The notes beneath the pieces were generated by a model. The model saw nothing but the letters and a program-made list of their open reading frames with translations, had not been told where the DNA came from and did not search any database. Shown here in pieces: positions 3,192 to 56,200 of a stretch of DNA of 64,000 nt; within the stretch, counting starts at the first letter, position 1, and each line of letters opens with the position of its first letter. The stretch comes from Vermamoeba vermiformis. Lineage: Eukaryota. A program made the translations under genes and the position numbers. Location: contig JBEWZL010000124.1 in assembly GCA_045837725.1 (NCBI GenBank), forward strand, positions 434,001 through 498,000. The letters are read 5' to 3'.

Positions 3192-4329
3192 TCAAAGAGA
3201 GGCCAAAGAAGAGAGCTTCTCTTGATACTCTGCGCACAACTGATACGATAGTTGTATCATATCGAACAACTGATCTAACAGCGGTGACTGACACTCGATC
3301 TGCGTCTGATCGGCAATTTCAAAGTGTTGATTCTGTTGGCGCAAGAAGAAAGTGGTCTTAGTGGAGGGTGCAGCGCCCTTCTTAGGTGTCGCAATGGGCA
3401 GCAACAAGTAGGAGCTGACGAGCAGCATCTTGTGCGCGACCGAGAACTCGAGCACGAGCTCGCGCGGCAGTGCAGGCTTGAAGGTGAACTGCGTGTGCAG
3501 CGAGGTGAGGAAGGTCGTGCGACTCGGCAACAGCAGCTGATCACTCGCGCTCTTGATGTGCTCGGACACGCGACCAATCAGCTTGCTCGCCAGCACTGCG
3601 TGGAAGTGGTCCATGCGCGTGTAGTGTTCCGTGGCGCGGTCAATGCGCTCCAATTCTTCGAGGGCCAGGCGCATGAAGTTGGCGCTGTTCTGGATCTGCA
3701 CCGCTGTCAGCACTGACACGTGTCAATCAAAATGAGGACGCACCTGTGTCAACTTCCACGGCTCAGAGGATTGAATGCAGGTCTTAGTCGCGGTGTTGGT
3801 CTTGGTGTTGGCAGTCTTGGGGAAGTTGATCTCGATCTCACCCTCTGTGAGGTGCCAGCTTGATAGCACGAGCGAACCCTTCAATATTTTGCTGTGTATT
3901 CATTAGGCGATGAATATGCGCAATGTATGACATACTCTTGTGATTCGAACTGTATCGGCTTTGAATACGCCGAAAGGGCTGGATCCGGATCTGATTATTG
4001 TGTTAAAAAAAGATCGCATCATTTGGAAATAATATTCTACCATCTTTGTTTGCTTCTTTTGGCATTATGAACGATAAACAGGCCTTTTAACCAGTTAGAT
4101 AAAATGTAAAATTATTTATTAAATAAATGATTTTTGCGGTACCTTAACAGCCGTTTTGATCTCCTCACAAATACTAGGAAATTCTTCGTGCACCAGCCAG
4201 GCAATTTCTCGTCTCTGTCAACAATTTAGACCAACCAATCTAGATGCAAGAAGAGTTTAGACTTACCAAGCTGGACCGCTCTAGTTGAATAACTTCATCG
4301 TTCTCCTCAAACACAGCGCTCTGTGCCAT
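3192..4329 (-). CDS. ROGDI: Rogdi/Rav2-family protein (multi-exon)
   Basis: QIQNSANFMRLALEEL and FKPALPRELVLEFSV resemble the Rogdi leucine-zipper family; ATG at 4329 followed by GT-AG introns. Confidence 0.7.
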
Positions 4330-4501
4330 TCTTGTCCTGAAACATAAATGCAATAGAAACGATTTGACTGAAATTTCACACCCTGACTTAACTGAAAGTT
4401 GAGTTAAGTCACGATTTGGTATTTTTCGTCTTTTTCTTCTCGTCCTGTTCCCTTTTACTTTGCTCCTTTCAGCGTAGAAGAAGACCAGCAAGTAATTAAA
4501 A

Positions 4502-5453
4502 ATGGTAAGGCATCAGTTAGTATTTAACTGATAAAAACACTGCATATCAGCTCACAAACCAACTTCGTATTATTAAACCGGTGGTCGATGCAGACAATCT
4601 GCGTGGTTATTGCGAGTCAACCGTGTTAATAATAATATTATTACTATTTGATACATCAATGCTTACGTGAATGATTCATATTGAATAATTATTAACCCCT
4701 ATAATTTAATAATCATATTATAATTATAAATAACATTTGTAATAATCTAATAATTATTTCAGGCCACTAAGGATAAGACCGAGAATGTTATGCGTCAACT
4801 CAAAATCGCCAAGGTTATTGTCAACCTTTGTGTCGGAGAATCTGGTGATCGTTTGACCAAGGCCGCCAAGGTCGTCGAACAATTGACCGAACAAAAGCCC
4901 GTCTACTCCAAGGGTGCGTAAATTACACCAATAATTAGTGCAGCATTGAATTAATGGAATTTTACAGCTCGTTACACCATCCGTTCTTTTGGTATCAGAC
5001 GTAACGAACAAATCGCTGTCCACGCTACCGTCCGTGGTGAAAAGGCCCGCGAAATCCTCGAAAAGGCCTTGAAGGTCAAGGAATTCGAGTTGAACGTAAG
5101 TAGCTGAATCCAAAAAAAATTATTATTTTTAATTAATTTTGGTGGGCGAAACTAGTTGTCTAACTTGCTAAATTAAATAGGAGGAGAACTTCGCTGACAA
5201 CGGCAACTTCGGTTTCGGCATTAAAGAACACATCGATCTCGGTATTAAGTACGATCCTAGCATTGGTATCTACGGTATGGATATCTTCGTTGTCTTGGAA
5301 CGCGCTGGTGTCAGAGTCAGCCGAAGAAAGAGACGAGTTGGCGTTGTTGGAATTAAGCAACGCGTCACAAAGAAAGAGTCCATCAAGTGGTTCGTCGATA
5401 CTTTTGAAGGTGTTATCAGATCCAAGGGCAAGATCCAACAAAAACTCGAATAA
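4502..5453 (+). CDS. RPL11: 60S ribosomal protein L11 (uL5); ATG-only first coding exon, 3 introns
   Basis: Spliced translation contains [31 protein letters not shown] and [27 protein letters not shown]. Confidence 0.97.
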
Positions 5454-7744: not shown

Positions 7745-9290
<1,546 letters not shown>

Positions 9291-9497
9291 GCGCGTGTAA
9301 TAAAGAAGTATCGTAGCATTGTAACGGTGGGTTCTTGTACTATTATGAGCACGTGTCGGGGAATTAATCACGTGCTGCCTCTGGAAATTTCAGTGCAGTT
9401 GGTGACAGAAATGGAGTGCCGAGGACTGTGACAAGTATGTGCACAGTACTGCATTGAACGAGCACATCAGCTGTAGTTAATTAGAGCAGTCAGGGCT

Positions 9498-11192
9498 ATG
9501 TATTCGCAGTTTTTTATACTCTCCCTGCGCGGTGACACCCTCATCTTCAAGGACTGTAAGTTTACATACATTAATATTTATATGATTGTAATTGAGCTAC
9601 AAATGCACGTTATGTATTAATTTAATTAAATGCGACTGGCTATGGCAATCAACCGATTATTTGAAATATTTTGGTGATTGACGTGCGAAATAATGAAATA
9701 GAAGCTTCTACAACAATATACGTCATTATTCACATCAATAATGCAGCATTGTAATTAATGTTATTAATACGCGTCCAGATCGCGGTGATGCAGTCAAAAA
9801 TGCAGCAGAAATATTCTACGGTGTAATCTCGAAGCTCAAAGAAGAGAGCAATCCCATATTTGTAAGTAGCGATCACATATTATTAGTCTCGTCCATGCTA
9901 AACAAGTGACATTAGCACGTGGACGGAGTGCAGTACATCTACATGAAAAACAACGGCATGTATTTTGTGTTCACCACTAAGCGCAATGTGTCGCCTATCA
10001 TGTCCATTGAACTCTTAGAGCGCATTGCACAGCTCGTCAAGGACTACTGCGGTGTAGTGACCGAAGAGACGATCCGCAAGAACTTTGTGCTCATCTACGA
10101 GCTGTTAGACGAGATTATGGACCACGGCTATCCACAAGGCACCTCCACCGAGAAAGTGCGCGCCTTTGTGCTCAACACCCCCGAGTACAAGCAGCCCAAA
10201 CAGCCCAAGCACGGCTCCCTGGGCGGCAAGACCACACCTGGTGCCACGGCCAACAAGCCCATCACTGAAGAGGGTGCCAACAACGAGATCTACATCGATC
10301 TGCTCGAGAACATGACCGTGCTGTTCGGTGCTAATGGCAATCTGCTCAACTCGGAGCTCGAGGGCGTGGTCAAGATCCGCTCATTTCTCAAAGGCAATCC
10401 CGAGCTGCGCTTAGGACTGAACGAAGACATCAGCTTGAGCAGTGCTGCGCGCGATCTCAATTACAGAACGAGTGGCGGCATATGGCTCGAGAACTGCGCA
10501 TTCAACGAGATTGTCAACACCTCCGCGTGGGATGCAGATCGCGCACTGATTTTCAAGCCCCCCGAAGGCGAGTTCATTCTCTTGCAGTACCGCGTCGACA
10601 CGCAGCTCACGTCATTTGTGCCGCCATTCCGTGTGTTGCCTTATTTGGAAGTCTCGGACTCCACTCACGCTGAATTTTACATCAAGGTACGTCCATTGAC
10701 ACGTGTCACGCACCAGTTGACATATTTGCAGATTCGCGCAGACATTGCCAAACAATTCTTCGGCAACAACGTCACAGTCAAGTGTCACGTGCCGCGCTCG
10801 ACATTGAGGTACAGTGCATTGAAATTCCGCTCAAATCACGTGACTAATCAAGTGTCAGTGCTCACTGCGAGGTGTTCGACGAGACCAATCAAGCGGACCA
10901 ATCAGGACTGGACTACATCGCGCAGGACAAGCAGATTGTGTGGGTGATCAAAAAGTTCACTGGCGGCAGCGAATTGACACTGCGCGTCAAAGTGTCACTC
11001 AGCACTGACATTGCGCAATGCAAGCGCGAGTTTGGTCCCGTGTCGGTGTCATTTGAACTGCCGATGATGGTGTGCTCCAACCTCACGATTCGCTACTTGA
11101 AGCAGAATGAATACACCAAAGAGGCTGCGCCGCTCAGGTGGGTCAGATCCATCACGCAGTCCTCGTCGTATGTCACGCGCATTCCTGTCTAA
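9498..11192 (+). CDS. AP4M1: Adaptor complex medium subunit, AP-4 mu type
   Basis: MYSQFFILSLRGDTLIFKDYRGD start typical of mu4; IRKNFVLIYELLDEIMDHGYPQ; C-terminal RWVRSITQSSSYVTRI. Confidence 0.85.
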
Positions 11193-11399: not shown

Positions 11400-14300
11400 C
11401 TATTTCTCTTGCAAGAAGTTGGTGAATGCTGCTTTGAGCACCAGTGACTCGACTTCAATTTGCGCGTCGTTGAACAGATCTGGTCCGATTCCTCCTTCGC
11501 GCACTGATTGCTTAATCTCGCGCATTCGATCTTCGTCGAGTGAGCTGAGATAATGATCTGAGTCCATATTGAAGTACTGCTCCATAATTTCTTTGGCTTT
11601 GATTGTCAGTTGCGGGTCATTGGCTGGAATCTTTTTGAACAGCTCCACCTCTGTGAGAATTAGTGTTAGATGCGAGGTCACTAGTGTGACACGTGTCACA
11701 TTCAGCAACGACTTGCCTTTGCAAAACATGAGGTTCTCCACGTTTTTAGCCTTGACCATGTAGGCCTTGAACTTGTCGAACAAATTCTTCTCGGCCCAAA
11801 TGTCGCTCAGTGTCACTGGGCCCGCACCGCTCTTCTTGCTCGATTTCTTGTCTTTGCTGCCCTTCTTCTTCTTGTCGCCTGGTGATGAGCTCGCCAAGTC
11901 CTCGTCCTTCTCTGCTGTCGCTGATCGTTCTTGCAGCTCGCGCTCAGAGAGAATGCGTGCTTGGTGCGGCAGTGCGAGCAAGAACGATGTGATTTGCAAG
12001 TCCTCTTCGAAGGCGTAGGGCACTTTTTGGAATCGAATGACATCGCCGAACACTTTGGCCAGCATGGTCATCTTCTCCCAATTGACGTACTCTTGCTTGT
12101 CGCCCTCGCGATCGGGCAGTTCTTCAATGTACACGAGATCTCCGAGGATGAAGCCTTGCACGGGCACACAGGACTGCTGCACATTCTCGAGCATGTCGCG
12201 ATAGATCTTGTAGTTCTGCGTGGTGGAGAGCAAGTGCTGAATGGACTTGAAGGTCGTGAGGGTCTTGCTGTCCAGCTCCGCCCAGCTCTTCTTGAGACGA
12301 GTGACGTACGAGTAATTGAGTGCCGCGTAGATCTGCATCATGCCGTTGAAGTTGCACTCTTGACGCAACTCGTCCATGATCTGAATGAAGCGTGTCAGCA
12401 CCTTGGCGCGCTCTTTGCTGTTGGGTGAGAGCACAATCTCCGTGGCCACCCAGTACGTCATTTGATTGAACCGCTCCGTGGCCTTGACGACTGGCGTCAC
12501 ATCGTCCGCGTGATTGGACTCGTTGCTCTTGCTCAACAGATTGCCGGAACTGCCCTCGCGCGTCATTTTAGGACTGGCAGGCAGGTGCGAGACCGAGCTC
12601 TGTTTCTTCAACTGATCTTTTTCGAACTGCTTGCGGAAGTAATTGGAGAGCGGAATGTTTTTGAACATGTAGAAGTCCACCAAGCACATGTTGCGCACGA
12701 ATTCTTTCACGGGGAAGTCCATGATTGATTTGGGCTTCAAATTGCCACTCTCTCCCGCACTGCGCGCACCCGTCAGCTGCGTCGGATTGGACGCTGCGGG
12801 CACTCTGAAGGACTTGCGAATGAACTCGCTTTGTTGTCGCTGACACGTGTCAATATTCATCGTGTCAAAGTGTCAAACAGCGGTACGTACCATCAATTTC
12901 TTCAAGTGTGCTGCCCAGCTGCGCTCGCGGTCACCCTTGGTGGCCAACTGTTTCAAGAAGCGCAGCAGTGCGTTGTGCCACTCTTTGTTGCGCTTGAGCT
13001 CGGTGTACTTCATCTCGAGCCACTTCTTGAGCACATTGATCACCCTAGTGGCACGCGGTCAGTCCTCAGTCACGCGCAGCACCGAGGTCAGTACGTACCG
13101 CAGTTGAATGAACAGCTTGGCGCGCTCTTCTGCTTCAGGCTCCGCGGGCTTGACACGCAGTTTGGGCAGGCGGAACTGCGAGATCAACATGCGCAGAAAG
13201 GTCACGCTGTCCGTCCAGTACTCGTACGTCAGCAGGAATGTGTCCACAAAGTCCTTGTCTGCGGGGCGGTCAGTCTGATTTCCTAATTAGGCAAGTACTC
13301 ACCCTGGTAGACAGTCGAGTCCGCCAGCATGTACACCAGGGCAGAGGGCGTGGCTGATTTGATCACTTTAGCACCGCGTCTATCCTTCCACACAATGGCG
13401 TTGTCCGCGAGTGGATCTTGCGCGCCGTTCAGTGAATCATCCTCCACGTGACTGATCGACTCTTGCTCGCTGTCTTCGGTCAAGTCAATCGAGGCTGAGA
13501 GCGGATCATCTGATGAGAAACTGCCCCACGACAACTCGTCCTGCATTGGTCGTCAGTCACGTGCGCAGCGATGGATTGCCTAATTAGGTAATTACCTCAC
13601 CGAGATCTTTGCCGTTGTGCAGTCCCCACGTGCCAGAGAGTCGCCAGTCGGTGGAAGTCGAGTCCGCGTCAGACAGCAATCTCGGACTCTTCGGAGATGG
13701 CTCCGACTGCACGCCGTTGCCGTCACTTTCCTTATTTGGTTCTGCCTCCCAGCTGTGCATGCTCGGCTCAGTCACGCGACGACGGCGCATTCGTGCCTCG
13801 TTCAACAATTCATCGCGCACTTCTTTGAAGGTCTCGACCACCGTTCTGTGAACAAATGCGTTATTAATCAGTGTTCGCTAACGTGTCGTGCAGTGGATCT
13901 TGGTGCGATCTTCAATTTGACACCTTGACATTTCACAGGCCAATAAAAAATTTATTATAACCACGAGAAATAGAAATTAGTAAATACCCCAAATAGGAGC
14001 AGTGTTATTGTATATGTTGCAATTTAATAATAAAACTAACTTGATAGCGCGTCAGTGATTGAATAACAATAAAAAAATCTTCGAGCGGGGGTGTCAATAA
14101 AAATTAAATTTTGAATAATAATCACTATTTCTCGTAGTTACAATAGGCCGTGTATCATCATATAATCACCGGTATCATATATGCATGTTCCACTGCATTA
14201 CCTAGACACCGGATTTCCGTCAGTTCGTTTTGGATTTTCGTTTGGCTTATTAACATTGAGTTTGATAACTTTAGGCACAGGTGAGGGTGGTGATGTGCTA

Positions 14301-18138: not shown

Positions 18139-21100
18139 ATGTACAGCCCAGAACCGATCGCGCAAGTCTGTTTATTAATACAAGGTAAGACAATCCATGA
18201 CTTGAAATATGAACATATATTGCACTCTATAATCGTGTGATGTATTGTATGCTGGGATATTTTATTTGTACAGACGTCCACAATTAATTTGCATTGAATA
18301 GATGCGCATTAATTATCATTTAAGACGTCCCTGTCCAGCACTACCCCTTATTATTTATATATACTGATCCCTATTCTCACCCCTACACCTCGCAGTGCAA
18401 GAATCAGGTCAAGCACGCATCACTGATTATTTCCCACCTTCATTTCAAAATCACGCACTGCTCGCTAATGTCGCCATGGTGCGTCCAAATATAGTAACTG
18501 ACAGCACGTGACTCATGTCCAAATACAGTTCTGTTTCCCCACCATGCCCAAGGCCCCCGAGCCCTCGCCAGGTCGCAAGCGAGCACGCAGTCACGCGCGT
18601 GCAGTGAGTCGGAGCAAGACAGCCGTGACAGCTGCTGACACCGTGACTGACACGCGTGCTCGCAGCAAGACACGCGCTGATGCCGCACTCGTGCACACAC
18701 AGCTGGTGGCACCTGACACCTGGCTCGTGCATCACTTTGTGCTCACGGGCGGTGATGGCGCGCGATACTACGGCCACTGCTTGCGATTCTCAGCACGTGA
18801 CTTGCAACAGACACGTGACAGCAGCAAGAACACCACGCACCGCACGGCACTGGACGAATTCTTGCAAACACACTGGAGCGAGGGTGACAGCAGCGACCTC
18901 ACCGTGCCACTGGACAGCGCGATTTGCGTGCTGACCACACAGCCCTGGTATGGACACGTGACATTGAGGTGTATGACACTAACCCATATTAGGTATGACT
19001 CGGTGCGTGCCTGGCTGGTGCACACGTGGCGCGATTCACTGAAAGCACAACGGCCCATTGAACCGCGTCTGACGCAGCTGTTTCAAGAGGCAGTTGTTCC
19101 GCACTCCAAGAGCTATGCTGTCAAACTGCTGCTCGACACAGCTGTCACACCCTATTTGACAGGTGAGCACGTGACACACATGCGGCACCCGACACAGCTC
19201 GATCTCCATCGACTTGAATTTCGGTTCATGAAACGACTCGGAGATCAATTCCCACAACTCGACTTCTCGCTGGCACCGCTGCGCAATCTCTCGCCGGAGA
19301 TTGTGGCGACAGTACTCGCGGCACTGCTGCTCGAACGCAAAGTGATTTTGACCTCGGCGTACGGCTCAGTGCCGATAGTGCACGCGTGTGAGACCTTTGT
19401 GCAGCTGATGGTAAGTCTCAGTTTGACACCTGTCACTGTGCTCGCTGACACCTGTCATTCAGTGGCCGCTGCAATGGAGTCACGTGTACATTCCACACTT
19501 GCCCTTCGGTACGTGATTTGACACCAGCAATCTGTGCAGGTCATTCATTGACACGTGTCATTTGCAGAACTCCTCGAGCTCGTGCAGGCCCCCACACCAT
19601 TCTTCTTAGGTGTGCAGCGCAACATGTTGCCCGAGGACTTGTCCACACTCAATCTCGGCACCAATCTCGTGACTGACGCGGTGCTGGTCGTCGATCTCGA
19701 TCACAATCTCGTGTGTGGTCCGCACAACGTCAGTCTGAGCTCGAGTGGCACAGTGCCGCTCAGTCACTCGTCCCCGCAGCTGAATGTGCATCTGACCGAG
19801 TCGCAAGAGTTTGTCGATGTGGATCTGACGGCGAGTGCCCCCGTGCAGTCGATCAACAACACCAACATCAACAACCACAGTCCTCTCGCGGCCTCGCTCG
19901 CACTCAAGCGCAGCACCTCTGACGCGGCCTCGCTGGTCAATGTGCCCACACTGCCACGTGTCATGCACCTGCGACTGTGTGCCAGGTAAGTCACGTGATT
20001 GAATGTGCATGCGGAGTATTTACACGTGTCAGATTGGAGGCCGCACTGCGCAGTACACTGTTGGACGCGAATCAGGCGTACAAAGTGTCACGTGTCAACC
20101 AGGGCGATCAGACCGCACAGCGCGTGCAGAGTGCCGTGTACTTGATGTACTTGGACCTGCTCGCGGACTGCGATTTGACACGTGTCAGCTACTTCTTGGA
20201 CACCCTCGACAGCACAGAGTCACGTGTAAGTATTGCACCTATTTATAGCACCAGTCCCTCACCCCCGCGCAGTCATTCTACGAGCAGTTCTTCGAAACAC
20301 AGGCCTTTCAGCGCGTGATTGAGGAGCGATTAGTGGAGGGCAGTGGCGCGCACTTCTTGTTCACGTGCTTGGAACTGCCGGCCAGTGAAGTGCGTCAGAT
20401 GATCCTCGAGGCCTTTGAGAGTCCCAAACACTTCCTCGAAATCGACGAGCCCCTCGATGAGGACTGCGCGCCCCTGTCCCTCGAACACCAGCGCAATCCC
20501 ATGCTCAACTTCCGCAACGATCAGTTCCGTGCTGCGCGCTACGACTACGTGCTGGCCGAGGTGAACAGACTCATCTTCACGGACCCCGAGTCCACAGACC
20601 TCTACGTGCTGCGCATTCACTATCACATGCAGCACGAGAAGTACGACAAGGCACTCAGCGACCTCTACTCGCTCAGTGAACTCGACGCCGAGCACCCGCT
20701 GTTCAACTCGATGCAGCTGTTCCAAGAACTGTTCTGCAAGCTCACTGAAGAGCAGCTCGACAAGATTCGTTCACTGAACGGCAGTGCCAGGTCCAAGAAG
20801 CTGGCTGAACTCGCGCAACAGTACTGCGAAGAGAACGGTGTCGGTGCGAGTGGTGCGGCACTTGGGTCCGAGTCTGACCACAAGGCACGTGACACGGACT
20901 GGGAGAGCATCAGCACGGACTCGTCGGAACAGAACACGCCACAGGTAATGTGCAGTGACACGTGTCATCCGAGTAACAACTGACATGTGTGACAGATGAC
21001 GATTGGTGACTGGGCACACTTGGACAATATACCAGGGCCCGAGAGTGATCCTGCAAATATCGACAAAGAGCGGCAAACAATGAGCAAATATCAGCTGATT

Positions 21101-22833
21101 CGCTACATGTCACGTGTGCGACTGGTCGATGATCCACTCACCGCGAGCAGACTGTTCACCATTCTCTCGCAGGGCATGAAGCGCACCAGTGTCAAGCTCA
21201 AGACCGTGAAGCAGTTCGTGACGCAAGTGCAAGAGAATCAGCGACTGAACAAAGTGAGCTGGACGCAGACTGTCGGCACCACGCTCGATGCAGAGGGCGG
21301 GGACGAGCTCGACGGTGAGAGCAGCGAGATTGTGTTGCTGCACGGACCTGTCAATCTGCTCGCGGAGGGCTCGGACATCACGCCCACGCCCCTCACTGGC
21401 GCACACAGCACGCGCGGAGTGTTGTTCTTGACCAACAAGCGGCTCTTGTTTGTGGCCACCAAGACCAAGTCCAACAAGCCCCGCGTGACGGACATGCGCA
21501 TTCGATCGATCAGCAAGATTGAGAAGTTCGATCAGCGGCTCAGTGCACTGTGGCCTGCCCTGCCCTGCATACGCGTGCACAAGAGCACCGCGCACACACA
21601 CACCGTGCTCACATTTCACATCAGCAATCGCCGCTCGTTTTGGTACGACTGTCTGAACGAGATCTTTGCAGCCTTCAAAGTGTCACGTGATCTGGAAGAC
21701 GAGGCGTTCCTATTAAAGGCCATCACCACAGTGATACTGAGCAATGCGCTGCAACGACCGACGCACAAGACTGCGCAGAGCAGAGAGGTCGATCACTTGC
21801 TGTTCACCTTCCGAGACTTCACCAAGAGCAACTTCTATCAGATCGGGCGCGTAAGTCATTTGCAGTTCTGTTCATGAACGGCAGCTCTTCTGACCCTAAA
21901 AATAGATCCTAGCCTCCGAAGGCATGCTAAACACAGCGTACAAGTGGGAGGAGGCAGCACACCCCAAGCGCGACAGTGGTGCAGTGGCGAGTGAAGTCTT
22001 GTCCACGGCACTCAGCTGTTTCTGCAACGCCTCTGATCTCTTCAAGCTGCGGGCTAGTCGCGAGTTCAATGACTTTGTGATTGCCACTGCTGAGCTGCAA
22101 GTGGTAAGTACTGCGACACGTGCTTGTGATTGCTGTTCTCGGATTGACACGTGTCACAGATCTCGCTCAACAATCTCTCGCAGAAGGAGAAGACGTGTCT
22201 CTTTGTCAACATTTACAACGCACTTGTCATTCACGCACTCGTGCTCGGTGAGTAGACTGACCAATCACATCGCTGCGCTTGTAACTGACCAATCACATCG
22301 CAGTTGGATTCCCTCAGTCTCTGCTCGAGTGGCGCTACTTTGCACGCCACGCCTGTTTCAACATTGGTGGCTTTCCCTTCACGCTCGACGCACTCCACCG
22401 CATTCTGCGCGGTCGTCAAGCACTGTCAGGCCGCGAGACAGGCGACAAGAAGTTCAAGAAGAATGACCCGCGCTCTGAACACACACTCGCGCACTCAGAT
22501 CCGCGCTTGCACTTTGTGTTAGCGCTGCACAACAAGTCCTGTCCGCGCGTGCAAATCCTTCATCCACAGACCCTGGAGCAGCAGTTGCGTCACGCTGCAG
22601 CCTTGTACTGCGAGGACCACGTGCTCATCAGCCCGGAGTCGCACGAGATCACGCTGCCCAAGCTGTTCTACTGGTACTCGAGTGACTTTGGCGACAATGT
22701 GCTGCAGTGGGTGGCACAGCACTTGAGCCACGACAAGGCCAAGCAACTGACGCGCATCATTGAGAGCGGCAAGTACAGCGTCACATTTGACTACAGCTGG
22801 GAGCCACTCATTTTGTCACCGCTCATCATGTAA
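18139..22833 (+). CDS. Multi-exon DENN-domain protein with TPR-like, GRAM/PH-like and C-terminal DUF547-like regions
   Basis: FCFP, HFVLTGGDGARYYGHCL, ALLLERKVIL, LVQAPTPFFLGV (DENN); RGVLFLTNKRLLF (GRAM-like); FVNIYNALVIH, DPRLHFVL, LPKLFYWYSSDFG (DUF547-like). Start codon tentative. Confidence 0.78.
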
Positions 22834-27370: not shown

Positions 27371-29244
27371 TCATAGGGTAGTGCTGGACTGCAGATTGCC
27401 ATCATTTGCCGCATGATTCTGCAACACGGTGACGGTGAGAATGTTATTGAAGTCGTAGATCTTGTCCGTCAGTGTGTCCACCACGCGTAACAGGGGCAGT
27501 TTCTGCACACCGGGTTTGAGCGGGAAGAGCGTCAGCTGGAGACTGGTGGATGATTTGGGCAGCAGGCGATTAGTGACGAGCTCGTACTGGCCCATGATCA
27601 TGAGGCCTTGCACTTTGTGTTTGAGCACGGTGAGTGAGGGCACAATGGGCTTGGTGCCGCGATTGACCAGCTCGAGTGTGACAGTGAAGGGTCGCTCGAG
27701 GTAGATCTGCTCGGGGATCTGTGTGAACACGACTGACAGCGTGCGGTCTTGTTGCAGCTGAGAGGAGGTCATGTTAGTCAAACGATCGATCGAACTTCAA
27801 CTAATCAGACAGGACTTACATTGATCACGAAGGGCTCTGAGAGGAACACACCTTGACCTCCAAAGTGAGTTCTCCATGTCAACTTGACACGCCCTAGCGA
27901 CGTGTAATTCTGCGAGTATTAGAATCATCTGAATGACACGTGTCAAAGTGAAGTACTCACGGGAATATTCGGGTCTAAAGGGTTCTTATACAGGACTTTA
28001 AATAGGAACTTGTGCACGTCCCCACTGCTGATAGAGACAATGTCACCAATCAACTCCGCCAAGCTGTCATTCGATTAGATCGTGGTAATTATTACGATGT
28101 ATTAATTTTGACAGGTGCAGGTGTCAATGTCATACCTTGGAGGCAGATCCAGATTGTTGAGTGCATTGCTCGTGTTTTGCAGATTAGTCGCGTGATAGGC
28201 CTCTTCAGCAACAAATTCCACGTGCTCAACTTGCATGGGCACTTTCATCATGTTGCACACTGAAGACTCGATGGCAAAACCACTCTATTGGCAATCATAT
28301 ATAAGTACCTGTATCAAGCAATGGAATTGACTATTGCACATACGTGTACTGGCACTATTCTGCTCTCGAGGGTGAGTGAAGGCAGCACCTGAAATTTGAA
28401 ATATTTTCGCAAAGTTTTCTTTTCATTTTGACGCTGATAATTGATCGTGACCATCATGCTGTTCACAATATTAGGACTGGCTTAGTAATGAAGTACTTCG
28501 CCTTACATATGAGTGTCGAGTTCAGTGACGGCATGCTGTACAATGTGATCGATAGACTGGCCTGGCGCTAATGCATCACTCAGCTCTTCTTCGAGCAGAG
28601 TCACGCGCTGCGATCTGGCTTGCAATTCGACCTATTTATTCGTTGAGTACGGTGCAGCAATTTTGTAATTCTAAGATGCTACCTTTGTAGTGACTTGCTG
28701 GAGCGGTTGGTCGGTGTGATTAAATACGGATACATAACACGAGAACGATTCGCCAAAATAAATATCGCTGCAGATCCGAAATTGAAAATTATTAGTCAAA
28801 TTCATTGGTGGCTGATTTGAGCTTACCCAGTAATAGGAAATGTAGCGGCTTGGGATAAACCGAAATTGGTGGTCGTTGAGTCTTCTTTGTCCTTATTAAA
28901 CGGTGATTTTAGAGCATCTGCTGCCCAATCTGTCTCCTCGTGTGATAAATTCAATTCTTGAGCCAATAATGGTTTGTATATCCGCATAACTATCCAGAAG
29001 TATATTAGTAGCTATCGTCATTATACCTATCAGCTAAACGAATTTGCAAAACAATTTTATTATTTATTAGCGCAAAATCAACAATTATTGAGCATATAAA
29101 TTGTAAAAAATAATTAAATAATTAATACATACTGCGGAAGGTCAAATAATGAACTTCTTTATCTGCTGGCTGTTTTGGTCTGGCCTAGTTAAATTTGTCA
29201 ATAACAAGCTTAATAACGATGAATATGCATACTGGTGAGGTCAT
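27371..29244 (-). CDS. TRAPPC13: Trafficking protein particle complex subunit 13
   Basis: Spliced HYLTFRxMRIYKP, DIYFGESFSCYVS, RKYFKFQV, LGRVKLTWRTHFGGQG, LFPLKPGVQKL. Confidence 0.85.
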
Positions 29245-29420: not shown

Positions 29421-31167
<1,747 letters not shown>

Positions 31168-41664: not shown

Positions 41665-44330
41665 TTATTTACGTGTTCGCATGAGCTCTTTGAACTCACC
41701 AATGAGCTCGTCAACTGTTTTAAGACCGTGCACTGTACCATCACGAGTACGCACGTTGACTTTCTGCGCACTGACTTCTTCCTCACCAATCACAATGATG
41801 TAGTTGTATTGTTGTGTTTGACCGCCCCTGTGCGCGAGTAAGAACAACAGTTTAATATCAATTGTTAAAGACATTACCTGATCTTCTTGGGCAGTGTCTC
41901 GTCTGACTTAACAAAGTCCACGTAAAACTTTTCTTGCTTCAGCGCATCGGTCACTTGTTGTGCGTAGTCGTTGAACTTGTCCGAGACCGTGCAAATCAAG
42001 CCTAAAGATGCGCGTTAGAACATAGCAATCTAAGTGGGTCTGTGCGTACATTGACGAGGGCTGAGCCAGAAGGGCCATTTTCCGGCAGTGTGTTCGATTA
42101 AAATTGCAAACATTCGTTCCACTGAGCCTAAAATAGCGCGGTGAATGATGACTGGTGTCTTCTCTTGGCCATCAGAGTCGACGTATTTCAAGTCGAATCG
42201 ACGAGGCAACTGGAAGTCCAATTGAATGGTGGCACATTGATGCTTGCGGTTCAACACGTCGCTTAAAATGACATCAATCTTCGGGCCGTAAAATGCACCG
42301 TCGCCCTGCATTGATTTGATAATTGATGCCTCGCTTTTCGAGACAGTCTGCAAGTGCCTTTTCAGCTTGGTTCCAGGTCTCAATGTCACCCATGTACTTC
42401 TCTGGGCGTGTGGACAACAGCACTTGATATGTGAAGCCGAGTGTCGTGTAGATGTGATGCAGCATGTCAATCACATTGTCAATCTCAGTGCTGATCTGTT
42501 CGGGCATGCAAAAGATGTGGCCGTCGTCTTGTGAGAATCGTCTGACACGTGTCAAACCTGTCAAAGCACCCGTCTTTTCATTTCGGTGCAGCGGTGAAAA
42601 GTCAGCGAGTCTAATGGGCAGATCTTTGTACGAGGGGCGCATTTGATCGAACACCAGACAGTGACCAGGGCAGTTCATTGGCTTGAGTCCGAGCTCTTCT
42701 TTGTGCTCGTGCTCATGGGCGTGGTTGTGCTCTTGATTGTGATCGTGGGGCTGTGGCTCAGTGTTAAAATCCTCGCCTGGTGTAACGAGGAACATGTTCT
42801 CTTTGTAGTGTTGCCAGTGACCGCTCTGGACAATGATTAGCACAGTAACAATAACAATAGGACTATATTCTTACTTGTTCCCACAACTTCTTATCGAACA
42901 ACAATGGCGTGATAACTTCTTGATAACCACGTGTCAAATACTCGTTGCGCAAGAACTCAACGAGTTTGTTATAAATGCGTGTGCCGTGCGGTAAAAAGAA
43001 CGCGCTGAAAATAGCTATTAGTCTTCAAGCGTGCGACGTATTTGTATTTGCATACCTGCCAGGACTCAAGCTTGAAAACATTAGCAATTTTTGACTCTTG
43101 CCCACGACACGGTGATCACGCTTTTGAATCTCTTCGCGAATTCGCTTCCAATCTGCCAACATGTTCTTGTCGGGGAATGAAATGCCGTACATGCGCTGCA
43201 GAGGCAGGCCATTAGGATCACCCAAATAATAAGCACTCGAGGTCTTAGTGACATTGAATGCCTTGACAATGGCGGTGTTGGAGATGTGAGGACCGCGACA
43301 GAGATCAATAAATGTGCCGCTCTTGTACACGGTGATGGGCTCGTCAGCGGGGATGTGATGCAACAGATCGACTTTGAACGGGTTGTAGCCGAACATTTTC
43401 ATCGCAAAGTCTTTGCTCACCAACATGCGCTCGAATGGGTGGCCTTTCTTCACCGCTCGTCGCACAATCTCTTCGATGTTCGCGTAGTCCTCGGCATTGA
43501 CACTCATCGCCTTGTCGCCCAATTGAAATTCGTAGAAAAATCCACCGCCGTGCTGATCTTCACTGGACAGCGCTGGTCCGTCGCAGAGATGAATGTTTTT
43601 GTAGTGTTCTTCAACTGCTTGGCCCAACAAATGCGCGGATGAGTGCCAGAATGTATTTTGACCTTCCTTTGAGTCAAAATCAAATACTTCGAGCTCGCAA
43701 TTAAATTCGAGGGGCCGTGACATGTCCCACAGCTGTTTGTGGCCTGTACTCGGATCCGTTACGCGAGCAATCACGAGAGGTTGCGCTGGCTTGTATTCTA
43801 AGGATATTCATTAGATGCTTCATATTTAATATTTTTCTCGTACTTCCTACGAGTTGCCACGGTGTTGTTTGATTTTTGGTGGCGCGAATTGGATCTAGAC
43901 TTTGACCAGGGACATTCTTGACGATAATATCGATGGACTGTGGTGAATATTTAATAGAGTCTTCTTGTTTTAGTTTGTCTTGACGAGATTTCTCTTCTTG
44001 CCAGAGTTTCAAGCGATGTTCAATGTACTCGGGAAGTGGATCTGAACCAGTCACAAATTGTCAACGTAAGTAATAGTTAAAAGAGCTATATAAAATTATT
44101 GGTAATCTATTGAGCACGCGAATATGAATTTGAGACGTGTCATGAACAAGGTGAAGTCATTTTCTTGAAATTAATTAAAATATCTTACCTGACTGTCGAT
44201 TCTCTGATGAATATCTTCTATTAGTAATTATGAATACGCTGCTCTTTTTTAAGGAATTATTATCTCGAGTGATAGAGCAGAAACCAGATCTACAGCTTGA
44301 TCTCACTGAGCTTTGCAGTGCTCGCAGCAT
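41665..44330 (-). CDS. TARS: Threonyl-tRNA synthetase with mitochondrial-type presequence; one apparent +1 frameshift
   Basis: [70 protein letters not shown]; first exon [12 protein letters not shown]. Confidence 0.93.
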
Positions 44331-49100: not shown

Positions 49101-49737
49101 TTGTGCTGTTAGTAATAGCGACTGGTACTGGTGCTGCTCTTGGTGCGCTCGTGTTCAGCTGCATGGCAGTGGTGTTAGTTACGGGCACCGCGACGGGTTT
49201 TGTCGTGAAATTAATGGGCATTGGCGCGTTAGATGGAGCAGGTCTCTGAACGGTCATCTTAGGAGCAATGACGACTTGATTCAGACCGTGCGATATCATC
49301 TGTGGCACTACCTGTGTACTGTTGGGAGGAGCGACGACTAGCATGGGCCTATTCACGGAGCTGTTGTTCGGCATGGAGTAATTAACGACACCCAGTGCAT
49401 TGGTACTAATTGCACCACTGTTTGCGCCGGGCTGGTTCACGATATTGACTCGCATCTGACCTAGACTTGCAGTCTGTTGAACAACGCTGAGGGGCATGCC
49501 AGTCGGGTATTGTATTCGGTTGGTTACTATATTTGGCTGCATTTGCCCTAAAAAAAATTCAATCAATCAGGGTGCCAATTCAAATTTTGTTCGGCCGGGA
49601 AGGTTATTTAAGGATTGGGCCTGATATGAAAGAACATAACGTGGTGCATATTTGTAATAAGGCAAGAAGGAAAAATATCATTGTGGTATTTCCGAATGCC
49701 TACCTTGGATTTGGTTTTGATTCTGTTGAGCCATCAT
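46156..49737 (-). CDS. Uncharacterised protein: low-complexity N-terminus, Myb/SANT-like domain, C-terminal WD40
   Basis: EWTLREKIQL...WGTLFNEMVSYFPGRNASSLRNYY (Myb/SANT); LLGHSNKITALQFS, ASADESGLIRVW (WD40). Start tentative. Confidence 0.7.
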
Positions 49738-50426
49738 TTAAGCTTTGTCTAAATAATAATTCTGGTAAGAATAATTAACCATTCGAAACAATCAAAGTAA
49801 TTTACTATTATTTTAATGATGTAAATTGAGTGCTCTGAAATTTTAGATCAAACTATCGAAAGAAAATTAAAATGCAGGAGAGCTGCATAAAATGCAAATG
49901 GTTATTGAATTGATAATGATAGCGTAAACGATCTACGCTGATCAGATATTCAGAATTTTCTTAATCTTATCGGTCAGATCGTCGAGTTACCGATCCGCCA
50001 AATTTGCATCGATAAGAGTTGTAAACAGATATATTGATCTTTCTATAGCTTAATAATCACTTTTTCCATATTATTCTGATTGATGAATCATTGTAGAGCT
50101 TTGAGACTTACGCTGCTCAATCTACTCCGTTAGACGCTTGTAAAGCGATAGTCGATCATTTAAATGCTTGATTTATCTTCAATGTAATATCATTCTTCCT
50201 GTAGTGTGCGAATGAGTTCTTTATGAGCGACAAAATTGATTTTATCGTCCTGTTTTGGCGCCTTTTCCGTCGTGTCCTACACCCACACTCCACTACAGAA
50301 CAAAGGCTATAATAATGAATTAGCATGCTACTGTAACTTAGATCGAGATCTTTTAGGTTGGCCAATCGCTTCGTAAACATTTTTGTTTGTCATCTGGCGC
50401 AAAGCTCATTTACGATTACACGCACA

Positions 50427-51603
50427 ATGGATAAACCACAAATCATCAAGTACAAAGCTGGCAAGAACACTTTTGAAGTGTTGACTAAGACAGGTACGGT
50501 ACTTAAGTACCGTAAAGGTCAACTTGGCTCTCTCGACAATGTTTTATTGGCGGACGAGGTAAGAAGTCTGCGAATCCTGTTTGTTTCTCGATTTTATTTT
50601 TATTTATTATAATTAGGTATTCAAAAATCACAACAAAGGTGAACGTGCTAGTGCAGCTGAATTGAAGTAAGAAGAAAAACATTCCAGAATATTTTCGAAA
50701 ATAATTATTTAATTAACCACTTGATTCTAGGGAGGCTTTTGGCACTGAAAATGTCAAAGAAATTCTTCAGACTATTGTAGAAAAAGGTGAACTTCAATTG
50801 ACCGAAGCTGAGCGCAAGGAAGCGATCGAAAAGAAAAGGCGAGAAATTGGTAAGATCTACACGTGCTAATTTATATTGCAACAAAATAGTACAGAAATCG
50901 CGCATATATTAACAAATGAATCTTAGTAACCTACTTGAACAAGTATTTCGTTGACCCTAAAACCAAAACTCCGCATCCCGTCACTCGTATTGAAAATGCT
51001 TTGGAGACCATTAAGGTACATTATAATTCTTCAATAATCGCGCTTCAAATATTAACCGAGCTGACTGCAGGCCCGAATTGATCCTGACATTCCCACCGAT
51101 CGACAAATTCAGGACTTGTTGAAGAAGTTACCGGGAGTTCTTTCGTTGAAGAAACAAGAAGTCGAAGGCACATTGTTCAGTGCGTATTATATTGTTATAA
51201 TAGTCATTCCGAGCTCGAGTACTGACACGTGATTTTAGTTCCCCACGCGTTCATTGGTCAAACTCAAGGTGTGATGCAGCGCTATGTGCGCATCACTAGT
51301 GACAAGTACGACGACAAGGGATGTCACTACGGCATTGCTATGGTCCCTGGTGGTGAGTAGACCTTTATATTTACACTCAGGTCCAAATTAATAATTGTAT
51401 TTACACGTAGATTACAATGCACTTTTGAACGAGCTCAACAACATCACTAAGGGCGATTTCAACTTTGAGATTGATAGCGCTGGTGTAAGTAGACATGGAA
51501 CAATGAGCACGAGTAGACAATGTCTAATTTGACTGTGCAGGTGAATAACGATGAGCCCGCGGAGAAGAAAGGCAACAAGAAGGGCGGCAAGAACAGAAAA
51601 TGA
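50427..51603 (+). CDS. SBDS: SBDS/Sdo1 family ribosome maturation factor (archaeal-like)
   Basis: Spliced KGERASAAELKEAFGT, IVEKGELQLTEAERKE, DPKTKTPHPVTRIENAL, LNNITKG. Confidence 0.88.
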
Positions 51604-51623
51604 GCGCTGTTCTCGGTGTTGAA

Positions 51624-51739
51624 GAGTCATCAGTGGTCATTTGATGTTGATCAATTTTTGAAATGTTAACTACAATGTACAGTGATCACATCAAATGATT
51701 TCACTGTGATTCGTTCTACTACCACATTGTAGTTAATAT
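51624..51739. repeat. Two interleaved inverted repeats downstream of the SBDS stop
   Basis: 51631-51653 pairs with 51683-51706; TTAACTACAATGT (51666-51678) pairs with ACATTGTAGTTAA (51724-51736). Confidence 0.85.
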
Positions 51740-51834
51740 AAATATAGCTCATTAACAATTATTATATTATTTTTATCTATTTTATTGGGCATTGGGCAGA
51801 AAATGTCAAATTTCAGTTCATTTTTCAACTCAAA

Positions 51835-53117
51835 ATGGAGAAAGACAAGCAAGATAAAGAACCTAAGTTAGATTTAGACATCGATCTATCGAAGTTTTCG
51901 ATTAGTAAGAAGGACAATGGCCAGCATCCGTTCTTGCACCGGATCGAAGGTTTTTTGCGTCCCAAAGAAATTGTCAATCAGCAAAAGCGAAGAGATGAAG
52001 TACTAAAAAGACAGAAGGCAGCTAGGCGAAATTTAATCAATTACGCTCGTCAACTGGCCGGATTCAAACCGAGCAAAGAGGCGGAAGAGGAAGAGAAAAA
52101 TGCAAAAAAATCTGATACTACGCCCACTCAATCACCGAGCAAAACAAATCATAATGCAGTCGAAAATAATATTTCAAATAATACTGATGCGTCAGGAAAA
52201 AGCATGGAAGAAGAGGTTTTGACAGAGGAGCCAATGGGCGACAAAATGGACGTGCAAAGGCCTAGAGTTAATAAACGCGAGCAAAGTAGAATTAAAGAAG
52301 GTAATTGATTCGTATTAAGCTTGGTTTTCCGGATCGTCCTGATCTTTTTTTCTCTAAAGGACTTAGTTACAAAGACCAGTTGATGATGCCTGAATTCTTG
52401 AGCGAAATTCCACCAGACTTCACCGAGAAGTGGATTGCTATGCCTTTTCCTCAAGGTACGTACGAGAACCGACGCTAAAGTGTCGAGATCCGAAATTAAT
52501 TCTTGAACAGGCCAGAGATGTCTGCTTATATCAGCTAAGGGCCGCACACTATTGATCAGACGCAATGGCACGGAGATTGCACACTTCCCTTGCAGACTAC
52601 CGGGTGGCTCGCAAAAGACAAATGTGCGCGAGTCCATGTTCACGCTGTTCGACTGCATTTTCGTGGAACAAGCGCTGAGTATCTACGTGATCGATGTGCT
52701 GGCATGGAAGGGCGACGTATATTACGACTATAATACGGAGTTTAGGATGAGTTGGCGCGATTGGAAGTTGGCTGAAACAGAGGACTTGACCGTACTGGAT
52801 CAGAACAACATTTACAAATTAGTAGCAGTGCCTTATTATCCTTGTACTATTAACGGACTAAAATCAGCGAGCACTGATCCGTTGCCATATGCGTAAGCCC
52901 ATACCATAATTGTTAATAGTGCCACATCTGTTACTAACATCTTGACAGACGAGAAGGTTACTTGTTTTATCATCAAGAAGCCACTTATGAGTTCGGTTTG
53001 ACACCTGCCATGGGTGTCATTCACGCGCACGTGATCGATAAATTATTGCAAAGTCTGCAAGGTACGAGGCCGCGAGAGAACTGGTACGAAGATGCACAAG
53101 ATAACACCACGAAATAA
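51835..53117 (+). CDS. SNUPN: Snurportin-1
   Basis: IBB-like QQKRRDEVLKRQKAARRNLINYARQL; QLMMPEFL, PQGQRCLLIS, LPGG, YVIDVLAW, TEFRMSW, GYLFYH. Confidence 0.9.
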
Positions 53118-53273
53118 TGTACAATTAATAAGCAGTTTGGGTGTGGTTTAATGAAGCACATTAATGTATAATAAAATTGTAAATGAGTTCGCGTGACAAG
53201 TTGCAAAATTTTCGCATCCAGCCATTTTTTACAATTCTTTCAATATAATAACAACGACAATGACACGAACACT

Positions 53274-56200
53274 ATGACAACATTAGCACCATATCAACGA
53301 GAGATATTGAAACAAGCGCTCACAGAAGAGGCATTGTGGATCTTAGGGTTTGGCCTCGGTGCTCTCAGTATTATCGAAGCTTTATTGGAAAAAATTACGG
53401 AAAAAAATGTAGACGAAACAGGAGAAGATGTAGCGAAGAAAACAGTTATTGTGTTGAATGTACATCCAGAAAATTTACCTTCTTTTTCACCACGCAAATA
53501 CTCCTACATCAATGCTGATTTCACGTCGGCCCAACGGTAATATGATTTTTCGTATATTTATTTTTTAATTATTCGGCCATTTTACTCGCACAAGTTTTCT
53601 CGTGACGCGTGAAATTCCCAGAACTTGCAGATCTGCATTAAACAACTATTAATCGTCTTTACACTAACAGAAAGGCAATATATTTGCAAGGTGGACCTAT
53701 TTTTATCACTAGTCGAGTTCTCATTGTGGATCTGTTAAAGAAACGATTGCCGAGCCATTTAATTTCGGGCTTTGTTATCAATCAGGCACATTATTTGAGC
53801 GAAACCTCGACCGAAGCATTTATATTAAGAACATATAGGCAAACAAATAAGGTACTTGCATACGACGAAGCTGTCACTAGTAGCTAACAAACGCGTGTCA
53901 GACTGGATTCATCAAAGCATTTTCAGAACACCCGTTAGAATTGAGTGGTGGATTCAACACTATGGCTAAAGTAATGCGCAATGCATTCTTAAAGAAAGTA
54001 TTCTTATGGCCGAGGTACGAACGGAGATTAAACACACCTTTTTCGTCTGACTAACGCGGCAATAGATTTCACAAAATTGTGCAAGAGAGCTTTGCGCAAC
54101 ATAAGCCAGAAGTAATCCAATTGTACAGTAAAATGACCCCTGCCATGGATAGAATTCATCAAAATGTCATTAGCATCATGAACGCGTGCATCAAAGAGTT
54201 GAAGAAGAGTTGCTCGGTAAGGCCATCTTATTATAATACTAATCTTCAATTGTAATACTTATATATTCTTATTTTTAGATCGATATCTCGGACCTTACAG
54301 TTGAAAATAATTTGTTCAAATCCTTTCACAACATGATCAAAATGCAGCTAGAGCCGATTTGGCACAAGATTGGTCCTAAGGCTAGACAGCTAGTTAATGA
54401 CTTGGACACACTGCGCAAGTTACTAATGTAAGTATTATAAAGGTACTAATCACGATTATTAATATTTTCAAAAAGACATCTTGTGCGTTATGACTGCGTG
54501 TCATTTAATGAATACGTAGAAAATATGAAAACAAAGGAATTGGGCGAGCATTCCAATTGGCTGTTTTTAGACGAGGCCGACAAAGTATTTTTAGATTCGA
54601 GAACTCGTGTCTATTTAACGCAAAAGAAAACAGTGGCTGAAAAGGTACGTGTTCGCAAAAGTATAAAAAATGTCAAAAATTGACCGTGTCACTAGGCAGA
54701 AGAGAAAGACGACGATGAAGTGGTGCAAGTGCAAGAAGAGGGCGATAAAGTGCTGGAATACAAATTGATTTTAGAAGAGCAGCCAAAGTGGCAAATGTTC
54801 AAAGAGATCCTCGATGAAATTGACAAAGAAATTTCGAGCAATACAACCAACACGAGTCCCGGGCCTATTCTCGTGTTAGTGCGCGAAGATCGCACGTGTT
54901 GGCAGCTGCAAGATTATTTGACACTTGGCGGCAGAAAAATGTTGAAAGAATCGTTCAAGAAGTACTTGTTGCGCAAGCGACACCGCATGCTCGTGCAGAA
55001 CTCGAGTTATTCGTACAGAGCACGTGGCAGAGGACGAGGACGAGGCAGAGGAGCTAATAATAGAGGCCGCGGTGGATTTAAAAAATTAAATAATAACAAC
55101 AAACAAACTCAACTCGTGTTCCCAAGTCAATCGATCAACAATCCAGCTAATTGGCAAGCTTATATGGACCTCGCTGAACAACAGTCACAACAGTACGTGC
55201 TTCATTAATATTTCTGAATAGTAATTAATCGGATCGCATTAGGGTGTCCGAGCAAGATGGAGTAATTATAGCGAAAGTTGATGACGATACTATTCAAGGC
55301 AATGTCGTCAATGAATTTGACGCGTTCTTCGGTTTAATTCCTGAACCTCAAATTATTTTCCAGCCGTTGATGGATAATCTCAATTTAATCTCGCTATTGA
55401 CCCAAACAAGGCAAGTACATACTCAATAAGGAATATTAACTTACTAATATAACTGACAGACCTAACTTTGTAATTCTATTTGACGGTGATGTGAGTGCTA
55501 TTCGTCAATTAGAGCTGTACAAATTGATGACACCTGGCGCCAATTTGCGAATTTATTTCGCGACGTATCAGAACAGCATTGAAGAACAAAAATTTTTGAG
55601 CTCTATTAAGAAAGAACAAGACGCGTTTGATAAATTAATCCGCGAGAAAGCTGTAAGTGTTAACGCGACATTATTGACACGTGTCATATTCTCAAAATGT
55701 CACATTTGCGCCTAGAGCATGGTCATTCCTGAAAATCAAGATGGAAAGCAAGAAGAGCCTGAAAATCTATTAGAACCAATTAACAGTCGCAAAGGAGGAC
55801 GAATGATGAAAGAAAAGCCAAGAGTGAGTGTCAATATGAAAAGTTATTCTAGTCTTACTAACATCTTCGTCATCAGATACTAATTGACGTTCGCGAGTTC
55901 CGTTCAAAATTGCCTTCGTTGCTACACTCGCGCGGATTTGACGTGGTGCCGATGACACTCGAAGTCGGCGATTACATTCTAGCTCCTGATGTCGCTGTAG
56001 GTCAATCATAATGATATGTTAAGAGGACATATTATAATGCATATTTAATAGGTTGAAAGAAAGAGTATTAGTGATTTGTACCAGTCTTTTTACAGCGGAA
56101 GATTGTACAACCAGATCGAGGCCATGGGAAGGTACAAATGCGTCTTATTTACATGAAAAATAGCTAACGCCTGTCCAGAGCTTTTCCAAACCCTATTTTA

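Follow-up and report, generated by a model that had tools for sequence, protein, structure and literature searches.

A palindromic 12-mer concentrated in short introns of a Vermamoeba vermiformis contig: a probable functional signal and a candidate binding site for a dimeric protein

A stretch of 64 kb of the Vermamoeba vermiformis genome (contig JBEWZL010000124.1, positions 434,001 to 498,000; hereafter the window) contains 11 perfect copies of the 12-bp palindrome TGACACGTGTCA, nine of which lie in predicted short introns. The over-representation of this motif, its palindromic architecture, its location in introns, its conservation in a relative and the codon bias that accompanies it in exons are direct observations. 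Taken from sequence comparison, they suggest that the 12-mer is probably a working signal, most likely the site of a paired DNA-binding protein. More specifically, we place at roughly 40% the probability that TGACACGTGTCA is a selected DNA element, recognized by a dimeric protein of the G-box/E-box class that would act in gene bodies. All motif statistics come from this single window, which had been singled out for its motif density in a first-pass annotation of the sequence; because the window was flagged on that ground, the density reported here may exceed the genome average. Should the rest of the genome behave like the window, a single exact 12-bp word under selection would be present in roughly one intron out of seven.

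The 11 perfect copies that we counted have the same start coordinates as those given in the first-pass annotation. This annotation had set them against an equal-base expectation of about 0.004 copies, and an order-0 Markov model indeed predicts 0.0036 per 64 kb. A comparison with Markov backgrounds, which had been proposed as a check and which we ran within the window, leaves the 11 copies unexplained at orders 0 to 4, with expectations of 0.0036, 0.0088, 0.0106, 0.0185 and 0.089 per 64 kb, respectively. The expectation climbs to 0.5–4.1 at orders 5 to 7 because models trained on the same 64 kb include the motif's own copies. Across 100 dinucleotide-preserving shuffles, the mean number of copies was 0.00. 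The commonest 8-, 10- and 12-mers of the window are TGACACGTGTCA and its sub-words.

Near-copies are also in excess. Four one-mismatch copies had been listed at first pass (19424, 19446, 29951 and 57925); all are real, but the total is eight, with the addition of copies at 19952, 20020, 20086 and 44131, where 0.25 were expected. Sites with zero, one and two mismatches number 11, 8 and 10, against expectations of 0.00, about 0.25 and about 3.5; cumulatively, 19 sites fall within one mismatch (0.25 expected) and 29 within two (3.72 expected). The enrichment therefore drops from more than 100-fold to ~30-fold and then to ~3-fold, which indicates that the perfect form is strongly preferred. The copy at 11687 extends to a 16-bp palindrome, as had been annotated. 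We also counted TGACA/TGTCA half-sites in four arrangements at spacings of 0–12 nt. Only TGACA-NN-TGTCA was enriched, with 13 sites whose centres are CG in 11 cases and CC in two, and every other combination of arrangement and spacing returned 0–4 sites. TGACACGTGTCA is a perfect reverse-complement palindrome around a CACGTG core, and it presents both the dyad and the core of G-box/E-box sites.

The window is a gene-dense eukaryotic stretch with introns mostly 45–65 nt long, which present GTAAGT/GTACGT-type donors, CTAAY/CTGAC branch-like words and YAG acceptors. We built a custom gene finder based on codon usage and splice sites, which yielded 27 gene models and 69 introns. Of nine junctions listed from RNA reads, four were predicted exactly, two only approximately and three not at all. 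The RNA reads, from three raw-read runs, belong to a strain 95–99% identical to the window, and their depth is low over the motif genes. Over positions 9800–29799, where the runs match the window at 95–99%, many differences are fixed, which denotes a different strain or a close species. None of the 9 of 16 intron-type RNA junctions that were listed belongs to a motif intron, so the evidence for motif introns is indirect. Six of these introns were called by the gene finder, and three were added by hand; two (20956 and 55675) were called by inspection only, and those at 10687, 11687 and 12841 are backed by comparison with the DNA or protein of a relative.

With these predicted introns, we reached the split proposed in the first-pass annotation, namely nine intronic copies and two exonic ones (20176 and 42543), both of which read L-T-R-V. 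Introns make up 8.1% of the window and hold 9 of the 11 copies (binomial P = 6.8e-9); they make up 15% of its non-coding DNA and hold all nine non-coding copies (P = 3.7e-8). The full 12-mer is present in nine of 64 short introns (about 14%) and CACGTG in 14 of them. A CACGTG core belongs to a full 12-mer in 9 of 16 intronic cases, 2 of 33 exonic cases and 0 of 12 intergenic cases, and half of the eight one-mismatch copies are intronic, with a single one intergenic. The confinement to gene bodies claimed at first pass is borne out, with none of the 11 perfect copies being intergenic. The related statement that no copy sits in an intergenic promoter stands for the 12-mer, which is found upstream of genes in 0 of 11 cases, but does not extend to the core: CACGTG with other flanks is also found in front of genes, in one case with conservation in the relative. 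Within introns the position of the motif varies, with distances of 10–41 nt to the donor and of 1–36 nt to the acceptor.

The host genes are diverse. A Rogdi-like gene carries a copy at 3714..3725 in a 48-nt intron (3696–3743, minus strand, from the gene finder), where the open reading frame (ORF) 3195–3722 is bounded by an in-frame stop that the motif itself provides with its TGA. The gene for an adaptor-complex mu subunit carries one at 10697..10708 in a 45-nt intron (10687–10731, plus strand), supported by the gene finder and the relative's DNA. The RasGEF/RGS gene, on the minus strand, has two: the 16-bp palindrome at 11687..11698, in a 66-nt GC-AG intron (11651–11716) supported by the relative's DNA and by P0121, a protein from a relative, and a copy at 12841..12852, at the 3' end of a 51-nt intron (12840–12890) supported by the gene finder and P0121. 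In the latter, the motif followed by G makes the CAG acceptor, and the intron segment contains a stop. A TRAPPC13-like gene carries a copy at 27934..27945 in a 51-nt intron (27910–27960, minus strand, from the gene finder). The exonic copy at 42543..42554 (minus strand) belongs to a class II aminoacyl-tRNA synthetase gene with threonyl/alanyl-type domains, and its L-T-R-V lies within the class II core domain. The last copy, at 55675..55686, belongs to an unmodelled gene near 55.6 kb and lies in a putative 63-nt intron (55653–55715, plus strand), called by inspection only and the weakest of the intron calls.

The DENN/GRAM/DUF547 gene alone presents four perfect and five one-mismatch copies. 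Its perfect copies are located at 19549..19560 in a 59-nt intron (19509–19567, plus strand, gene finder only); at 20176..20187 in an exon, read D-L-T-R-V-S; at 20956..20967 in a putative 51-nt intron (20945–20995, plus strand, by inspection); and at 22145..22156 in a 56-nt intron (22104–22159, plus strand, from the gene finder), which ends 3 nt beyond the motif and has a second CACGTG at 22117. The segment 20945–20995 has a GTAATG donor and two in-frame stops, its removal keeps the frame, and a two-mismatch copy lies at 20981–20992. Two of the one-mismatch copies, both TGACACCTGTCA, start at 19424 and 19446 (19424..19457) in a single 52-nt intron (19411–19462). Three more lie within 19952..20097: those at 19952 and 20086 are exonic, and the end of the one at 20020 supplies the acceptor of intron 19986–20032. 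The remaining near-copies are at 29951..29962 in intron 29938–29999 (minus strand), at 44131..44142, the sole near-copy in intergenic DNA, and at 57925..57936 in a weakly supported gene model. The region 49500–62000 is gene-poor, with 40–42% GC and only two weak gene models, and still contains one perfect and one one-mismatch copy.

Conservation was assessed with a metagenome scan using an exon of the adaptor gene, which recovered two contigs of a relative, L001 (3,460 nt) and L003 (1,821 nt). Its DNA is ~79% identical to the window over 8747–12235, and the outside evidence consists of 3.5 kb of orthologous DNA and one protein. This DNA contains one perfect and one one-mismatch copy: the motif is retained in both orthologous motif introns covered, and the remainder of each intron is unalignable. 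The adaptor intron at 10687 measures 45 nt in the window; its counterpart in the relative has 52 nt, so that the two lengths do not differ by a multiple of three. Two blocks survive in it, the motif with its preceding T (12 of 13 positions, with one T-to-C change) and the segment from branch site to acceptor (14 of 14), and the rest cannot be aligned. The RasGEF/RGS intron 11651–11716 is a 66-nt GC-AG intron with donor GCAAGT in the window and a 62-nt GT-AG intron with donor GTAAGT in the relative; both contain the perfect 12-mer, in registers 7–11 nt apart, and nothing else is alignable. In addition, P0121, a relative's protein, is 85–96% identical to and colinear with the window and lacks exactly the 22 and 17 codons that correspond to the two RasGEF motif introns.

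The persistence of the motif while the rest of the intron diverged implies that it is under constraint and that the introns are old. As judged from the aligned DNA, the retention pattern is that of purifying selection or of an equivalent restoring force. The CACGTG core behaves similarly. A copy at 9347..9358, which precedes the start codon of the adaptor gene by ~150 nt, sits in the block TGAGCACGTG, matched in the relative over 10 of 10 positions amid unalignable surroundings, and a different CACGTG palindrome, TCACGTGA (10836..10843), is kept in the next adaptor-gene intron (10809–10858) and in the relative's orthologous 50-nt intron, at a shifted position. Overall, five of the seven cores in the region covered by the relative are kept: two in place in non-coding DNA, one exonic and two intronic with shifts. 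Conservation in orthologous non-coding DNA, which is expected of G-box/E-box sites, is thus found both for the motif (two of two introns) and for the core (five of seven), and retention with shifts resembles the maintenance of binding sites with turnover. The long first intron of the adaptor gene (9556–9778) contains other blocks, such as TTATTTGAAATA, TGACGTGC and GAATAGAA, that are identical in the relative amid diverged DNA and look like further conserved regulatory words. We also noted post hoc that the length is a multiple of three in seven of the nine introns with the motif, as opposed to 16 of the 55 that lack it (P = 0.008), and in 10 of the 14 with CACGTG; this property is absent in the relative's two orthologous introns and may reflect chance or a bias of the gene finder.

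These comparisons bear directly on the possibility that the motif is the remnant of a mobile element, either an introner or a miniature inverted-repeat element, whose terminal repeats fused into a palindrome. Indeed, the motif can be read as 6-nt inverted termini, TGACAC and GTGTCA, placed head to head, and single TGACAC units also occur in introns. The flanks, however, are identical at only 26% of anchored positions, which is the random level (mean of 15.6 of 60 positions, best pair 23 of 60), in line with the initial view that they are unrelated and do not define a transposon family. Moreover, wherever the relative's DNA or P0121 allows a comparison, the introns of the window, three motif introns among them, are shared, so these introns predate the split from the relative, and a motif kept while the rest of its intron diverged is the opposite of what the neutral decay of a relic would produce. 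We rejected an introner or miniature transposon on the basis of these flanks and shared introns and consider an origin of this kind highly improbable; a decaying transposon relic and recent intron gain both appear largely refuted by the conservation.

Exons provide a second line of evidence. The window contains 61 CACGTG sites against 20.0 ± 4.1 expected, a 3-fold excess. Of 21 His-Val dipeptides, 16 use CACGTG, where codon usage would give about 9, and of 31 Thr-Arg dipeptides, 7 use ACACGT, where it would give about 1.6. Exonic cores are found in all three codon phases (14, 14 and 6). The first-pass annotation had suggested looking for synonymous codon bias at L-T-R-V, and this bias is indeed present: two of the three coding L-T-R-V sites are spelled with the full motif, where ~1% is predicted per site. 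Together with the survival of the motif in both orthologous introns, this argues for the sequence-specific force which that annotation had postulated. Its picture of scattered copies was incomplete, having overlooked a dense cluster of 22 CACGTG cores within 4.1 kb (18502..22623, plus strand) that spans exons and introns of the DENN/GRAM/DUF547 gene. The 5' part of this gene also presents, by our reading, seven sense-strand copies of CACGTGAC[A/T], and RNA-read depth over the gene is near zero; a search with one of its exons among longer proteins returned no matches.

Codon choice pulled toward the motif, the sharp peak of the perfect form over its one- and two-mismatch neighbours, the retention at orthologous sites and the confinement to the bodies of unrelated genes could all be produced by a self-maintaining word of the kind represented by HIP1, the highly iterated palindrome of cyanobacteria. 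Under such a process, a bias of repair or conversion, linked to DNA modification or coupled to transcription, would create and restore the palindrome, and the copies would be individually functionless. We know of no such restoring process in eukaryotes, and a literature search for a HIP-like palindrome in eukaryotic introns gave cyanobacterial papers only, as judged from titles and the beginnings of abstracts. CpG dinucleotides are present at 0.96–1.08 of expectation across exons, introns and intergenic DNA, which therefore bear no trace of methylation-driven CpG loss. The methylation proposed at first pass finds no support in these values, although they neither prove nor exclude modification at the site itself. 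In addition, the one-mismatch forms are enriched instead of being depleted, and an asymmetry of the sense-strand flanks, described below, is left unexplained. A process of this type is, in our view, improbable.

We favor instead a reading in which the 12-mer is a cis-acting DNA element that would be under purifying selection, as a high-affinity site for a homodimeric protein of the basic-leucine-zipper or basic-helix-loop-helix type inside transcribed regions. The dimer would read the 12-mer on double-stranded DNA and would act on the transcription or chromatin of the host gene, possibly within a gene set enriched in membrane trafficking. We propose that the 12-mer survives mainly in introns because these are the only unconstrained sequence in transcribed regions. 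The exact dyad around a CACGTG core, the single arrangement of half-sites, the variable position within introns, the conserved core upstream of the adaptor gene, the exonic codon bias, the homotypic clustering of 22 cores in 4.1 kb and the lack of an RNA-helix signature all speak for a DNA site. Among the genes of the window, perfect copies are found in four of five genes of trafficking type (Rogdi-like, Golgi 7TM, adaptor mu, DENN and TRAPPC13) against three of ~20 others (hypergeometric P = 0.012, with categories chosen post hoc). This bias hints at a regulon and constitutes a lead rather than a test.

Several observations weigh against a dimer on DNA. The best site of an ordinary factor would be expected upstream of genes as well, and the tie of the full 12-mer to introns, measured above by the share of cores that belong to it in each class of DNA, counts against a dimer. 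The distribution of 11 perfect copies against eight spread over 36 possible single-mismatch forms is sharper than that of most transcription-factor sites. On the sense strand, T precedes the motif in seven of nine intronic copies and the mirror-image A follows it in none of nine (Fisher P = 0.002; noted post hoc), an asymmetry that the binding of a symmetric dimer to DNA would not lead one to expect. In the gene models of the window, the introns with the motif do not cluster close to the beginning of genes, and no candidate factor gene was present among the 30 window ORFs scanned. A dimer thus accounts neither for the restriction to introns nor for the sharp preference for the perfect form and the asymmetric flanks, and we therefore kept rival explanations under consideration.

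One rival is an intron element read on the pre-messenger RNA. In a first version, the motif would be a Y-TGAC-A word resembling a branch site and joined to its own complement; in a second, a docking site or a decoy for the factors that recognize branch sites; in a third, a 12-nt self-complementary tag that pairs two introns, or two copies within one intron. The intron restriction is what such an element predicts, and the 7-mers of the motif are the most abundant intron-enriched words after those of splice sites and branch sites. The T before the motif, which is also present in the relative's two orthologues, makes the left half look like the YTGAC branch-like words of this organism. Reading by eye, we found that the TGAC of the motif is the only branch-like word 11–17 nt from the acceptor in three of nine motif introns (12840, 19509 and 22104). 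The end of the motif followed by G forms the acceptor in introns 12840–12890 and 19986–20032, and in 22104–22159 the acceptor is 3 nt beyond the motif. In five introns, pairing is predicted between two copies, full or partial, and the self-duplex is predicted at -19.3 kcal/mol, so that pairing between introns would be physically possible.

On the other hand, recognition of single-stranded RNA has no need of reverse-complement symmetry, and the hairpin itself is weak (-2.1 kcal/mol), with only two of nine motif introns folding with z below -1.8. The position within introns is variable, and at least four of nine motif introns have, by eye, a separate canonical or TTGAC-type branch word downstream; the one in intron 10687, the only one compared, is conserved in the relative. 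Near-copies present no compensatory or G-U pattern: of seven single changes in intronic one- and two-mismatch copies from the window and the relative, compared by eye, only one is of a kind that preserves pairing through G-U. Finally, recognition at the transcript level explains neither the codon bias in exons nor the conservation of the copy that precedes the start codon of the adaptor gene. We view recognition on the transcript as rather unlikely. Three narrower candidates were rejected. An RNA hairpin or structured RNA element is at odds with the weak folding and the lack of compensation described above. Compensation for weak splice signals was rejected because canonical branch words are not significantly rarer in motif introns (4 of 9, against 36 of 55 other introns; P = 0.28), a comparison that also gives no support to a role on the transcript. 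A fixed branch or acceptor signal does not fit an acceptor distance of 1–36 nt, although the flanks of the motif are strand-asymmetric. Rfam and tRNA scans of the window found no non-coding RNA.

It is also possible, if doubtful, that the motif represents a new eukaryotic gene-body mark, that is, an exact 12-nt word that is either read in a strand-aware manner or kept perfect by transcription-linked repair, as a counterpart of HIP1. Such a word would occupy a sizeable fraction of short introns, as well as exons where the protein allows it. If read with strand awareness, either in the course of transcription or afterwards, it would for instance recruit the branch-site machinery, pair introns or provide a licence or self signal for transcribed DNA.

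Other features of the window were noted along the way. A CCAAT-like word, GACCAATC, was considered as a second intron motif and rejected, since only four of its 12 sites in the window are intronic; another such word, CTGACCAATC, occurs at branch-site positions of two other introns, 62398–62450 and 63037–63093. A 17-nt direct repeat, CTGACCAATCACATCGC, is found twice within one 56-nt intron (22248–22303), and a 15/30-nt tandem repeat (about 9–19 copies, 73–78% matches) lies at 25560–25833 in the coding region of an SH3-domain gene. A phosphoglucose isomerase gene (3–1184) has no intron in the stretch. Its close relatives, 96–75% identical, are one transcriptome protein and three proteins from metagenomes or run assemblies, and the next-best matches are 68–71% identical, those labelled with an organism being bacterial (Acidobacteriota, Chthonomonas and others). 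Based on these matches, the gene may have been acquired from bacteria. A scan of viral contigs with a RasGEF exon returned no matches.

The shape of the motif is already known, as it is that of G-box/E-box sites. What appears to be new is its behaviour: about 14% of the short introns contain the same 12-mer, letter for letter, which is kept between species and has no intergenic copy in the window. We found no prior description of this in the titles and abstract openings returned by our searches, which dealt with primers, promoter motifs of plants and HIP1 of cyanobacteria. The exact 12-mer matched only Ebola-virus papers, as they were listed; the 10-mer core returned no title on protists or introns; a query for palindromic CACGTG intron motifs in amoebae returned nothing relevant in titles and the beginnings of abstracts; and ACACGTGT combined with intron gave none relevant among the matches listed. 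Because the motif is short, exact and conserved, the question of its role is testable. Should the pattern extend to the whole genome, each of three possible outcomes would be unusual: an abundant gene-body DNA-binding factor with intron-confined sites, a fourth signal of very short introns in addition to the donor, the branch site and the acceptor, or the first eukaryotic analogue of the iterated palindrome of cyanobacteria.

Comparison with known systems shows partial likeness to each of them. HIP1 (GCGATCGC) is, like the motif of the window, a short perfect palindrome with a central CG, found far above Markov expectation (here 11 copies against 0.004–0.09 at orders 0–4), dispersed over unrelated genes without similarity in its flanks and preserved between relatives. 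In contrast to HIP1, the motif is eukaryotic, spans 12 bp instead of 8 bp and is, in the window, limited to introns and a few permissive exon contexts, not spread over all classes of DNA. Introner elements similarly place a repeated sequence inside many short introns of unrelated genes, but here the copies have only 12 bp in common, neither terminal repeats nor target duplications accompany them, and the introns, shared with a relative, are old. The introns of Trichomonas and Giardia possess an extended motif from branch site to acceptor, non-palindromic and at a fixed distance from the acceptor. The likeness lies in a word of ~12 nt with a branch-like TRAC in tiny introns, and in the acceptor AG that the motif forms in two introns here, whereas the acceptor distance varies between 1 and 36 nt and the motif is present in just 14% of introns. 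Expression signals that reside in introns, such as the periodic A/T clusters of C. elegans germline genes and the motifs of intron-mediated enhancement in plants, also lie in introns of many unrelated genes and act on expression, not splicing; these signals are degenerate and composition-like, whereas the motif of the window is one exact 12-bp palindrome.

G-box/E-box sites share with the motif the CACGTG/ACGT core, the dyad symmetry and a conservation in non-coding DNA like that of a binding site, a role that is here predicted from sequence, and the inner 10-mer GACACGTGTC turns up, by titles, in the plant regulatory-motif literature. They differ in that all 12 positions are near-perfect here and that the copies lie in short introns through gene bodies and not upstream of genes; the outer TGA/TCA flanks are present on none of the 12 intergenic cores of the window. 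Two further sites are similar in shape to the 12-mer: the CLEAR element of lysosomal genes (GTCACGTGAC) and a palindrome of 12 bp through which ER-tethered zipper factors control genes of the secretory pathway. Both of these systems are echoed by the bias toward trafficking among the host genes in the window.

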